This document shows, piece after piece, positions 9,972 to 64,000 of a stretch of DNA of 64,000 nt. Below the pieces are notes generated by a model. It was not told the DNA's origin and made no database searches. It was given only the letters and a program-made list of their open reading frames with translations. The stretch is from Octopus vulgaris. Its lineage: Eukaryota. Made by a program: the position numbers and the translations under genes. The DNA lies in NCBI GenBank assembly GCA_951406725.2, contig OX597815.1:64604001-64668000 (forward strand), given 5' to 3'. Within the stretch, counting starts at the first letter, position 1, and every line of letters begins with the position of its first letter.

Positions 9972-10517
9972 AAAATAAATCTCTGAGCGAGAAGTAAACA
10001 ATAGCAGCACGTCATCGTGAAGTATATTTGCCACGTACATGTGATGGACCCATAGGGGACGCTGCTGCTGTTGTTTATAGCCCCAGGAAGACATGTCCTC
10101 CAGATGGCTAACAACACACTGTTTGTGTCTGATTAGTATTTGCGAAGGGAAATCATCGTTCCCATCTCTAGCCTTACGTGATACACACAGACCTGGGTTT
10201 CTGAGAAGTAACCCGTCATCAGTGTGTGATAATCGCCAACTAGTGGTGAAAACTCATTTCAAATGCAAAAGACTATATGCTTTTTCCAGTGATAAACTAT
10301 CGCTGACCTCGAAAAAGGAGAAACAAGCAATATTGAGTCTCTGAACGAGAAGTAAACAGTAGCAGAACGGAATCGTGAAGTATATTTGCAACCTACATGT
10401 GGCAAATACTAATCAGACACTGACAGCATGTCGTTAGCAAGCTGGAGAAGATTCTTCCTGAGGCTATAAACAACATTAGCATCATCCCCAATGGGTCCGC
10501 CACATTTAGGTGGCAAG
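9972..10517 (-). mobile_element. HHR-bearing retrozyme/pLTR-like element: 358-bp unit, partial repeat and 5' inverted arm
   Basis: Direct repeat 9980-10042 ~ 10338-10401; 10402-10517 is an inverted copy of about 10027-10143; (TA)n on both flanks. Confidence 0.8.
10184..10228 (-). ncRNA. Type I hammerhead ribozyme
   Basis: Minus strand: CACACA-CTGATGA-cgggttacttctca-GAAA-CCCAGG-TC^TGTGTG; 6-bp stem I, canonical core. Confidence 0.8.
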
Positions 10518-10539
10518 GTATATATATATATATATATAT

Positions 10540-10772
10540 AATTGAAATTTATAGAAAAATAAAAAATGAAGACAAGTGTATGAGCAACAAGCAGGTGTAA
10601 TAGTCTGATGCTAAGGAAAATGAAAAAGTCTTTTATGTTTTCAGCCTACGCTCTTCAACAGAAAGCAATAAGAGAAAATAAACAGAGAGAGAATCAAAAA
10701 AATTAAAAAGAAAGAGTAAACAAAGAGAGAATGAAAAATAATTATAGATTTCAGCAGTCCAGCATGGGGAAT
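10540..10772 (-). mobile_element. Short TA-flanked element with a degenerate variant HHR (same family as 60073-60271)
   Basis: Minus strand ctttctgttgaagagcgtaggctgaaaacataaaagac matches 60136-60174. Confidence 0.6.
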
Positions 10773-10833
10773 ATATATATATATATATATATATATATAT
10801 ATATATATATAGATATATATATATATATATATA

Positions 10834-61259: not shown

Positions 61260-61647
61260 AATATATAAAAGGGCTTAGTAAAATAAATTACTTTGCCGCA
61301 TACTGAACTCATTAGAAATAGCAGCTAAAAAACTTTTTAAAAACCATTTCTAATACTTAAAGAAAATCTCTCTCATATAGTGCTTGCTCAACTCAACTCA
61401 CGAAAGTGAGTTGAGTTGAGCAAGCACTATATGAGAGAGATTTTCTTTAAGTATTAGAAATGGTTTTTAAAAAAGTTTTTTAGCTGCTATTTCTAATGAG
61501 TTCAGTATGCGGCAAAGTAATTTATTTTACTAAGCCCTTTTATATATTGTAATAATTTGAATTCGCCTTAAATGGTCCCTTTGCATACTGAACACTTGGT
61601 GAAATTGATTAATAATTAATTAATTTTACCCTCAATTGTTGAAATTA
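61260..61647 (+). repeat. Near-perfect 142-bp-arm palindrome with GAAA loop plus a 100-bp tail, in (TA)n
   Basis: 61260-61401 pairs with 61406-61548, one 1-nt indel. Confidence 0.92.
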
Positions 61648-61764
61648 TATATATATATATATATATATATATATATATATAGGCTGCCTTTTACGCTTTT
61701 AGATAGTCGAAAATTTCATAAACTAATTCCGGAATGGAACATGACCTATCCGGTGGTTTATCTT

Positions 61765-62231
61765 TATTCGCAGCTACATTATATTTTGTAAAATAGGGAC
61801 GTGTTGGAAAAATCTCGCTTTTGATACTTATACAATCCCTCGAGGTTCTTAGGTTATTTAAAAGTTACAGTTTTTTAAGCGAGCGTACGGAACATCATTC
61901 TAACCTGTTAGTATAAGGCCTTATCTCAGAAAGAATCTTCCATTTGAAACTGTCGTTATGTCCACGTCCTTAAGTCTCCAGAGGATTGTTGTATGTCTCT
62001 TCTTAGTGCGTCTAAAGGTAAGAAGATGGTAATTGTATCCGAAATTAAATTTTCCCCTCCCTCGGACTCAATATATCGTTTGGACTCTATCCAGCCTGTG
62101 CCACAATTTTGTCCTTGTATGTGCCTAATAAACAACGGAGGATATATCGTAAGCCTGTCGTAAAGAGAATTTAGATTTATTTGTACATGTGCATAGATAT
62201 AGCATACAGCATGGAAATAATCTTTCATCAT
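61765..62231 (-). pseudogene. Third GIY-YIG endonuclease relic, with no RT
   Basis: LCTCTNKSK...SSVVY, YNYHLLTFR..KRHTT, LWRLKD, FKWKILSEIRPY across shifting frames. Confidence 0.65.
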
Positions 62232-64000
62232 GGGTCGATTTAAGGCCAGACCGGTTTCGTCGCTTTACAAGAGAACTGCTAGATAAAGTGGAATAGGGTG
62301 GCGTTAATGCTTCGGGGAAATGTCCGACATTTTGTGACCCACGTTGAAACATATTTTCGTTTTGTCATCCATGCTGTGGCTTTAACAAACTAAGGATAAC
62401 TGTAATAGCTTAACGATTATTCACTTTTGCTACTTACTGATGATATATTCTTCATTCTCAACTTCGTTTATTCCTTTACCCACCTGCGATAAGCTACTAA
62501 GAACCTTCAAACATACATTAATGTCACTTTAGACCAATTCTCAGTCATTCCCTTTTTCAATTTATGAACATACATTTTAGACATTAAAGTGTGTATTTAA
62601 ACATAAGTATATAGACGTAGTGTTATTTTAGCACATGTTAGAGTGCATGCGTACGCGCATCTCTGTGTGTGGTTTTGTTTGTTTGTGTGTGTGTGGGTGT
62701 AATCCAAATAATGAGATATAGAAATACTTTAACACATCTTTAATGATCAATTACAGTTGCTTCTTGCAACGCCAGTTTAAACAAAATTCGAAGTGAAGAT
62801 TTACGTAATAATGTCTAAAGCAAACATTAGAGTGGTACTTCATCAGATTTGCATCAAAGCTGCGCTTTTATATTGCGCGTCATCCAGATTTTTTTTTTGT
62901 TTTTTGCTTATGTCGGGAGGAAACAATAAATAAATAAAATACGATAAGGAGATGACTAACTAGTTTAAAGAACATGCAAGAAGAGGAAAAAGGAGGAGGA
63001 GGAAAATGGTGGTAAAGGCGTGTATATATATATATATATATATATATATATATATACATATATGCAAATTCTATTATATACATGCATATTTATACATCCA
63101 TGCAAATATATAACATTCATACATATATGATACATTCATATGTATACAAAGACACACACATACACACACACATATATATATATAGTATATATACATATTA
63201 ATTTATCAATACGTATGTACTAATGAATGTATGTATATGGCGATATGTATGTAAACATTTATACACGCATACATATATATGCATGAGAGAGAGAAAGAGA
63301 AAGTGTGTGTGTGTGTGTGTGTGTGTGTGTGTGTGTGTGTGTGTGTGTGTGTGTGTGTGTGTGTGTATGTGTATGTGTGTGTGTGTGCAAAGCTCGTTTC
63401 CGTACATGTAATAACAGTAACAGCTAAAAATACGAAACTCATGGTTTCGTCGTCACCTTTCTCATCGTTTCTAAATTGTTTCGATTAAGAACTGCAGCAA
63501 AGTGAGAATATCTTTCCATGCCCCACTCTGCTGACCACTCGCCATTGATATGCAGCTTTCGTCTAACCTACAATCACGTGACGACACCATGGCTGGCGCC
63601 ATCCACACCATTATCTTAGTAACAGCAATTTGGAGACATTTACTGTGTTTTATGCACCAACAGATAACCTCGGGTGATTTGTCCTACCATGGGAGTTCCT
63701 GCGCTATATTCCACAATACATTATATTCTTGAATACTAAAATCTACCAAGACGCGTCATGCTGTCGTTTGGTCTTGTTTTTTCTTTTCCTTTTTTTTTTC
63801 TCGTAGATATATGAGTGTTGATGTATATATGTTTTGCATACAGATTAATGTGTCTGTATGTATATATAAATTAATGTGTATATATACTTTACACACACAC
63901 CTTCACACACATATACATAGACACATACACATACATATACATATACACATAGCAGTATTATGAATAGAAAGAGAAACACAGAAAGAGAGATGTAAATATA

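Follow-up and report, generated by a model that had tools for sequence, protein, structure and literature searches.

What are the many hammerhead ribozyme motifs that lie beside TA microsatellites in the genome of Octopus vulgaris, and which machinery put them there? The question is raised by a stretch of 64,000 nucleotides (positions 64,604,001 to 64,668,000 of contig OX597815.1, GenBank assembly GCA_951406725.2; hereafter the window), which is rich in AT and microsatellites and holds remnants of long interspersed nuclear elements (LINEs), mariner-like elements and Penelope-like elements (PLEs). An initial annotation had named 13 hammerhead motifs in it and ascribed them to about ten families of non-autonomous mini-elements. 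We searched the window together with its genome (2.8 Gb, 227 contigs; loci fetched from it carry L-numbers) and conclude, with a probability of roughly 80%, that the window samples a genome-wide mix of PLE ends and of retrozymes likely derived from them, likely put into (TA)n by the reverse transcriptase (RT) and GIY-YIG endonuclease (EN) of PLEs.

We scanned the window with a type I hammerhead descriptor that asks for stems I–III and a paired N3:N8; it replaced an earlier, stricter descriptor that gave one match. As a result, 22 matches at 7 loci were obtained, against 0–2 (mean 0.25) in 20 block-wise dinucleotide shuffles, and one more, 60141(+), was gained when A6 was allowed to be U. The strict matches lie at 10222(-), in a 277-bp array (8 plus, 6 minus), at 36056(-), in a 488-bp array (2 plus, 1 minus), and at 57369(+), 57948(-) and 59396(+). 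Seven of the 13 named motifs passed strictly and an eighth passed with A6U. The separate hammerheads named at the outset are thus real, and those that fail remain recognisable: in 13112 a U.U mismatch closes stem I at its base, and 28 of 30 family loci carry the motif; 37103 has a 111-nt insert in stem II (12 of 13 pairs); stem I of 42985 is interrupted, as read by eye; and 42375, 57038 and 10628 are decayed, with other copies of their families passing. Across 1.7 Mb of loci, 904 matches fell into 38 clusters, 20 of them with at least two distinct sequences. Furthermore, positions 3 and 8 of the core change together from family to family (C:G, U:A, U:G and G:C, with A:U in the 42375 family); by this pairing, the unusual cores are compensated variants. 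In vitro, cleavage is lost with C3G or with G8C and partly regained when both are combined, according to the portion of Frangieh 2024 available (PMC11167929). Since core and stems exceed chance, the motifs are assigned to the type I class as predicted ribozymes. The hammerhead model was absent among the 150 of 281 Rfam matches listed, which were microsatellite-driven microRNA matches. The 60141 family (L231–L260) carries U at the normally invariant A6 in 30/30 loci, and its relatives have C, A or G there.

Seven of the motifs belong to tandem families free of open reading frames (ORFs), with units of 358, 359, 362, 488, 492–495, about 525 and 548 bp. By their sequence features these are non-LTR retrozymes, a known class, whose sequence features are shown by seven families, or eight with a 561-bp family included. 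These families and the 277-bp array, with A and B denoting two fixed 3' ends counted in nucleotides from the predicted cut, occupy the following positions.

9973–10517, minus strand: copy of the 358-bp family, 1.2 units, with hammerhead core at 10222, predicted cut at 10190 and inverted arm at 10402–10516
24312–28212, both strands: two-armed 277-bp array, 6 units minus (A +96) and 8 units plus (B +23)
35858–36501, minus strand: 492–495-bp family, 1.3 units, hammerhead core at 36056, B end +147
52385–54098, both strands: putative 488-bp retrozyme with two arms, the plus arm of 2.9 units (A +235) and the minus arm of 318 bp (B +130)
56883–57232, minus strand: decayed monomer of the 359-bp family, 82% identity; an intact two-armed array lies in L311
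57266–57573, plus strand: 5'-truncated monomer of the very young 362-bp family, U3:A8 core, B end +175
57642–58208, both strands: two-armed copy of the ~525-bp family, minus arm with hammerhead at 57948 (A +262), plus arm ending at B +178
59118–59636, plus strand: monomer of the 548-bp family, U3:A8 core, B end +194
61257–61649, both strands: fold-back truncated copy of the 561-bp family without hammerhead, B arm +197 and A arm +295

Each unit (277, 358, 359, 362, 488, 492, ~525, 548 or 561 bp) holds one hammerhead, and the periods of 277, 358, 488 and 493–495 bp hold. Arms of the 488-bp copy meet at a palindromic AAATTT, and its hammerhead has a stem II of 68 nt. Copies of the seven tandem families, and of the 561-bp family too, are scattered over multiple loci; the 277-bp array occurs at one. 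Predicted circular folds were more stable than shuffled sequences for all seven units examined (minimum free energy z −2.1 to −7.8, 12 shuffles each). The families share no common primary-sequence 3' motif, and only the pairs 561/548 and 359/57038 align. The single-arm 358-bp loci L088, L102 and L108 have a common extra repeat in the 5' flank, which could be a linked element.

A further five of the 13 motifs (13112, 42375, 42985, 10628/60136 and 37103) are ordinary pseudo-long terminal repeats (pLTRs) of PLEs coding for RT and GIY-YIG, whose remains in the window are these.

10534–10693, minus strand: decayed Neptune-type PLE 3' end (pLTR), 73% identical to the family at 60074–60278
10834–13265, plus strand: 5'-truncated Neptune-type PLE (RT, CX4CxxC linker, GIY-YIG), EN adjacent in 29 of 30 loci
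36868–38843, minus strand: decayed 3' part of a Hydra-type PLE, with EN remnant (38171–38843), microsatellite-rich spacer and pLTR hammerhead
40800–42522, plus strand: 5'-truncated Neptune-type PLE, GIY-YIG (PF01541) above cut-off and a decayed A3:U8 hammerhead near 42380
42700–43319, minus strand: Neptune-type PLE 3' end, EN C-terminus (43188–43319) followed by a U3:G8 hammerhead-like motif at about 43040; left boundary approximate
60074–60278, plus strand: young Neptune-type PLE 3' end (pLTR), CUGUUGA core, EN upstream in 8 of 30 loci

The elements at 13112, 42375, 42985 and 60136 are classed as Neptune-type from linker and EN motifs, 42985 from EN similarity alone. The Neptune linker, CX2-5CxxC before a C-terminal GIY-YIG, appears as CX4CxxC in the ORFs 12176–12994 and 41407–42084 and upstream of the L256 pLTR (60141 family). 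In the PLE at 10834–13265, the pLTR hammerhead lies near 13115 with a U3:A8 core, and an inverted arm (10834–11575) holds a tail; its arms are 93.5–98% identical. The 42375 motif stands downstream of ORF 41407–42084, with a family copy in L421, and the 10628/60136 family forms a 4.5-kb tandem unit in L431. For the 37103 hammerhead (core about 37245, predicted cut about 37110), the Hydra-type EN remnant lies upstream in the window and an ORF start lies downstream in L440. Many identical-scoring copies of a very young Neptune-type PLE, whose open frame spans 781 aa, were seen in L407, L412 and many other places; the element has short internal repeats in its 3' region, and related copies carry a U3:A8 hammerhead.

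It might then be supposed that all the motifs are 5'-truncated pLTRs of autonomous PLEs and the tandems satellites made by unequal crossing-over, with no independent non-coding elements. This holds for the five motifs above; the 277-bp array sits at one locus, partial variants within arrays indicate recombination, and a satellite-like expansion is discussed in the part of Li 2026 at hand (bioRxiv 10.64898/2026.07.22.740005). However, each of the seven tandem families has the same unit at many dispersed loci (754–2,982 first-look candidates per family search; 40 were scored and 30 fetched with a bias to full-length copies, so these are not copy numbers), the sequence upstream of the hammerhead is the preceding unit and not an ORF, and multi-unit arms on both sides stop at A and B within TA. 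We therefore consider it improbable. The initial count of about ten mini-element families is accordingly reduced to seven ORF-free tandem families, with five of the motifs given over to pLTRs and the 277-bp array to a single-locus derivative. For those five motifs, the outcome that the initial annotation had named as refuting its proposal was the one observed.

The insertion footprint was then read from 150 loci (180 minus 30 overlapping views of the same arrays). Each tandem family was found to have two fixed 3' ends, 46–105 nt apart; from the predicted cut, B/A fall at 23/96 (277), 130/235 (488), 175/238 (362), 197/295 (561), 147/251 (492), 194/287 (548), 176/222 (358), 178/262 (525) and, at one locus, 181/228 (359). 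A head-to-head inverted arm was present in 84 of the 150 loci. Where both ends could be classed, the two-armed loci of six families paired one A with one B in 57/57 cases (p ~1e-17), with the main arm of the 561-bp family forced to A by the query; 27 of the 84 were unclassifiable, having an off-site or cut-off end. The 525-bp family added three AB, one AA and two unclassified loci, for a combined 60/61 A+B. A (TA)5 run adjoins the main 3' end at 121 of 149 loci, and at 111 of 119 if the old 358-bp family is set aside. The statement that all motifs lie in (TA)n was borne out in the window, where 17/17 tested motif positions have a (TA)5 run 21–334 nt downstream, but not across the genome for the 358-bp family, whose main end meets (TA)5 in just 10 of 30 loci. 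Target-site duplications are not discernible inside TA runs, and no piling up of 5' ends at the ribozyme cut site was seen. The proposal of many non-coding hammerhead families with PLE-type ends and TA targeting is upheld by the two fixed ends and the (TA)5 contacts.

The coding PLE of the 13112 family has the same two-end pattern, 35–41 nt apart. At 10834–13265 the tail is in the short arm and not in the long arm, and the long arm reaches further 5'; neither arm can thus be a copy of the other, and two primings are needed. The same pattern of tail and inverted copy is described for PLEs in the available portions of PMC8557442 and PMC3846280, and in vitro two RT start sites flank the tail and both strands are cut and extended, as far as Frangieh 2024 (PMC11167929) could be consulted.

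This one-A-one-B footprint, matching the PLE tail, inverted copy and two starts, rules out an assembly artefact. That inversions and arrays are long-read or assembly fold-backs might be suggested by young arms that are 97–100% complementary and by visible homopolymer length noise. However, in 60 of 61 loci the arms stop at two different family-specific positions, the arms of old copies are only 75–86% alike, and TA runs abut both ends; the chance of such an origin is very small. The inversions were rightly taken as biological, given the strict pairing of ends, and all the reported arms were recovered, at 10402–10516 (83%), 24312–28212, 52385–52702, 57726–58208 (75%), 61257–61551 and in the PLE at 10834–13265. 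For the element at 61260 the inverted arm stands, but a hammerhead is lacking and the end lies at about 61645, not 62345.

A more serious alternative is that a PLE mobilised an uncleaved linear multimer and that the second arm arose by fold-back self-priming, with no role for cleavage or circles. Near-symmetric arm junctions number 18 of 84 against 4.6 expected, palindromic centres are present at 52697 and 61405, self-priming was proposed for PLEs by Arkhipova 2013 (PMC3846280, available in part), and PAc inserts uncleaved RNA according to the same portion of PMC11167929. Against this stand the PLE at 10834–13265, where neither arm can be copied from the other, the variants fixed in all units of an array, which point to a one-unit bottleneck, and the 3:8 covariation, which points to selection on catalysis. 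We regard it as rather unlikely, with some claim to attention.

We then asked where the 277-bp array came from. Its unit consists of the pLTR and the first 19 codons of a Hydra-type PLE, at 99–100% identity, and it is the only unit in which a PLE peptide was found when unit translations were compared with PLE ORFs. The parent (L043, G000:C1:68813000-68822999) codes for RT and a C-terminal EN, with RWR, DKT, CxCX5C, CxxC and CxH motifs in translation. The Hydra clade is described with RWK-like and DKT motifs, a CxCX5C linker, CxxC and CxH in the EN and a (TA)n target (PMC8557442, in its available part), and by this motif match we call the parent Hydra-type. Pfam gave no RT or GIY-YIG match for it; its RT matches a Neptune-type RT by blastp (E=2e-6), and its Atlas neighbours carry HTH_animal/RVT_1. 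A 26-mer of the parent hammerhead has 4,070 exact copies in the genome.

In parent coordinates (hammerhead core 2009, cut 2047, ATG 2185), the window array joins 2241 to 1965. An array on contig C8 joins 2230 to about 1959 (unit 271 bp), and one on contig C5 joins 2248 to 1915 (unit 333 bp). Exact searches with the three junctions gave 14, 31 and 24 matches for the window, C8 and C5 arrays, in each case at one locus and in both arms, so that the 277-bp array is a one-off product and not a family. All junctions are off the predicted ribozyme cut site, with an overlap of 0–2 nt. Single-junction dimers were present at five other loci among the 20 fetched. The 5' ends of parent-derived loci cluster at stem I (1998–2006).

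Within arrays, units differ less than between arrays: 3.8 vs 9.65 in the 488-bp family (73 units), 2.5 vs 13.2 in the 561-bp family (16), 2.45 vs 3.4 in the 362-bp family (31) and 0.94 vs 5.75 in the 277/271-bp arrays (34). Locus-private variants fixed in both arms were found in L302, L059, L282 and L307.

The private-junction arrays together with the dimers suggest that retrozymes are born and copied by rolling reverse transcription. The simplest reading of the 277-bp array would be a two-step origin. A two-hammerhead dimer would arise by a template jump that leaves off shortly upstream of the hammerhead and lands in the ORF start. RNA made from this dimer would cut itself into a monomer that closes into a circle, and multi-unit arms would come from rolling reverse transcription of the circle. 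For insertion, a PLE protein dimer would nick both strands of a TA tract and prime cDNA within the RNA at A and at B, after which the two products would be joined head to head. The source dimer of the 277-bp array would be absent from the assembled haplotype, and some arrays would later have been reshaped by recombination.

Private arrays could instead have arisen in a single step, if the pLTR window of the parent was copied over and over in the manner of telomerase, or from a randomly closed RNA or cDNA circle, without any genomic dimer. Three junctions that are each unique to one locus yet repeated 14–31 times in both arms would be so explained, as would their position off the cut site with an overlap of 0–2 nt, and PLE RTs are sister to telomerase (PMC8557442, same portion). 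However, single-junction dimers are common, young source loci could be missing from one assembled haplotype, and the texts consulted gave no precedent for identical repeated jumps without homology. We hold the one-step origin to be unlikely. A bolder account would be that retrozyme birth has been caught here: an active Hydra-type PLE would repeatedly short-circuit its pLTR into two-armed arrays of 14–31 units, each made in one rolling or telomerase-like reaction by an RT dimer with priming at two fixed sites, and a few products would have become self-propagating circular-RNA families that make up a large part of the ~200,000 motifs estimated below. This we put forward tentatively, at clearly less than even odds.

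Several observations weigh against a PLE-derived origin by cleavage, circles and rolling copying. None of the tandem families, the 561-bp one included, yielded a coding parent in the limited set of loci covered (tblastn around 30 loci each, for the 359-bp family around L311 alone; GIY-YIG loci; shared 5' flanks; and unit translations against PLE ORFs). PLE matches lie within 1.5 kb of 0–5 of 30 tandem-family loci per family, and the three read were neighbours or nested insertions; L442, L446 and L427 were dropped as parent links on the same ground. One pair of ends, in the 525-bp family, is AA. RT and EN of the Hydra-type parent are in different frames in the copies read, by homopolymer error or in reality, and a source dimer with the same junction is absent from the assembly for all three arrays. 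Some variants occur in only part of the units (5/10 in L291, 12/14 in L292, 7/10 in L307; also in L293), and a higher-order duplication of 2.67 kb is present in the C8 array; growth after insertion thus also occurs. Finally, PAc uses uncleaved RNA in vitro and hammerhead mutants still insert (PMC11167929), and 8 of 9 Xenopus retrozymes showed no cleavage in Li 2026, each as far as available.

The parent itself shows further features. Among the matches listed on contig C1, many copies of its hammerhead are inverted pairs about 30–35 nt apart; these appear to be two short arms meeting at ribozyme stem I, where the RT seems often to stop. Between EN stop and pLTR, a 2.8-kb spacer (L043, L434, L435) holds 13 (TA)6 runs, is 90–93% identical among dispersed copies and includes the nested remains of a family like the 561-bp one. 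In this way the parent disperses TA target sites of its own, and it may add to the microsatellite load of the genome.

To place the window within the genome, 40 evenly spaced 10-kb pieces were scanned, giving 37 hammerhead matches against 2–9 in five shuffles. By our own count these are 27 loci. A (TA)6 run lay within 400 nt downstream of 26 of the 37, compared with 25% of random positions. The sampling gives a density of ~80 motifs per Mb and, by extrapolation, a total of ~2x10^5 motifs with pLTRs included, a rough figure because matches cluster. The idea of the window as a hotspot was dropped (8 loci vs 4.3 expected, P=0.07).

Whether these families had been catalogued was asked initially. 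In kind the class is known, as non-LTR retrozymes (PMC7229834), and its PLE origin has been argued (Li 2026). The architecture and the class are already described, and what is gained here is mechanistic evidence, not a new category. The sources compared below were available in part, and statements about them apply to those parts. Like metazoan non-LTR retrozymes (PMC7229834, PMC7761336), the octopus families consist of tandem units that do not code for protein, carry a single type I hammerhead apiece, are low in GC and are predicted to form self-paired circles, and many families share one genome (16 motif families in a coral) and coexist with PLEs (PMC7229834). Unlike those, with units of 150–450 bp (PMC7229834), units here reach 560 bp. 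Rolling-circle RT by PLEs was already proposed for retrozymes in Cervera 2020 (PMC7229834), with PLEs as a strong candidate only, and its text describes neither insertions with two inverted arms nor a pair of fixed start sites nor a targeting of (TA)n. Li 2026 argues that retrozymes are non-autonomous PLE derivatives, with 24 of 57 Xenopus families matching known transposable elements, nearly all PLE pLTRs; its evidence is co-occurrence and pLTR phylogeny, mostly in vertebrates, with the mechanism left open, whereas here we have insertion footprints and a 99–100% parent–daughter pair with junction intermediates.

The insertions also resemble endonuclease-positive PLEs of the Hydra and Neptune types (PMC8557442, PMC3846280) in their partial tandems, inverted 5' copy and optional tail at one end, in a pLTR that includes the first codons and a hammerhead, and in (TA)n preference and captured spacer DNA. 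Non-autonomous, multicopy head-to-tail PLE elements exist in Chlamys (same sources). Tails are 35–105 nt here against the 30–40 described for PLEs, and it is for non-coding arrays that the strict one-A-one-B rule has been measured here. For Octopus vulgaris, Bonar 2026 (PMC13282606) reports 31 recently active Penelope-like, 893 unclassified SINE (short interspersed nuclear element) and 58 unknown families; the text available has no ribozyme or retrozyme class and 0 occurrences of 'ribozyme', and the families may sit there unnamed. Our literature search returned no cephalopod retrozyme, no account of retrozyme insertions with two arms, no one-A-one-B rule on retrozymes and no locus-private arrays with their parent; supplements, Dfam, Repbase and the Zenodo octopus library may hold the families.

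Which RT moves animal retrozymes and how the inverted arms and tails of PLEs form are open in the field, and Craig 2021 (PMC8557442) sees the need for a PLE system in vitro. The one-A-one-B rule carries the two-start, two-strand biochemistry of Frangieh 2024 over to genomic non-coding arrays, and the Hydra-type parent, taken together with the dimers and arrays derived from it, offers a matched protein–RNA pair that can be tested directly. It is also implied that many unclassified short repeats in such genomes may be ribozyme retroelements.

Other features of the window were noted. An RTE-like LINE with RT (PF00078, E=2e-35) and AP endonuclease lies at 46350–49309 (minus strand), a duplicated LINE fragment between (ATT)n/(AAG)n at 14519–18052, and a mariner-like transposase remnant at 1966–2415. 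Copies at 13315–13706, 58600–59007 and 59780–60060, which we take to be tRNA-like SINEs, adjoin TA runs; two of the three are 83–89% alike and inverted relative to each other. The unique-looking DNA past the TA run, at 61682–62345, carries a GAAACCGGTC motif on the minus strand at about 62240 and is perhaps a decayed pLTR; it had zero copies among the genome-search matches listed. A 292-bp hairpin at 30217–30508 (perfect centre, arms 86%, TA run at its end), in which no hammerhead was found, is probably a fold-back insertion. Possible PLE-type remnants are a weak inverted repeat at 30728–30949 carrying a GAAACCGGTT motif and a pair of direct repeats, 76% identical, beside TA runs at 50950–51759.

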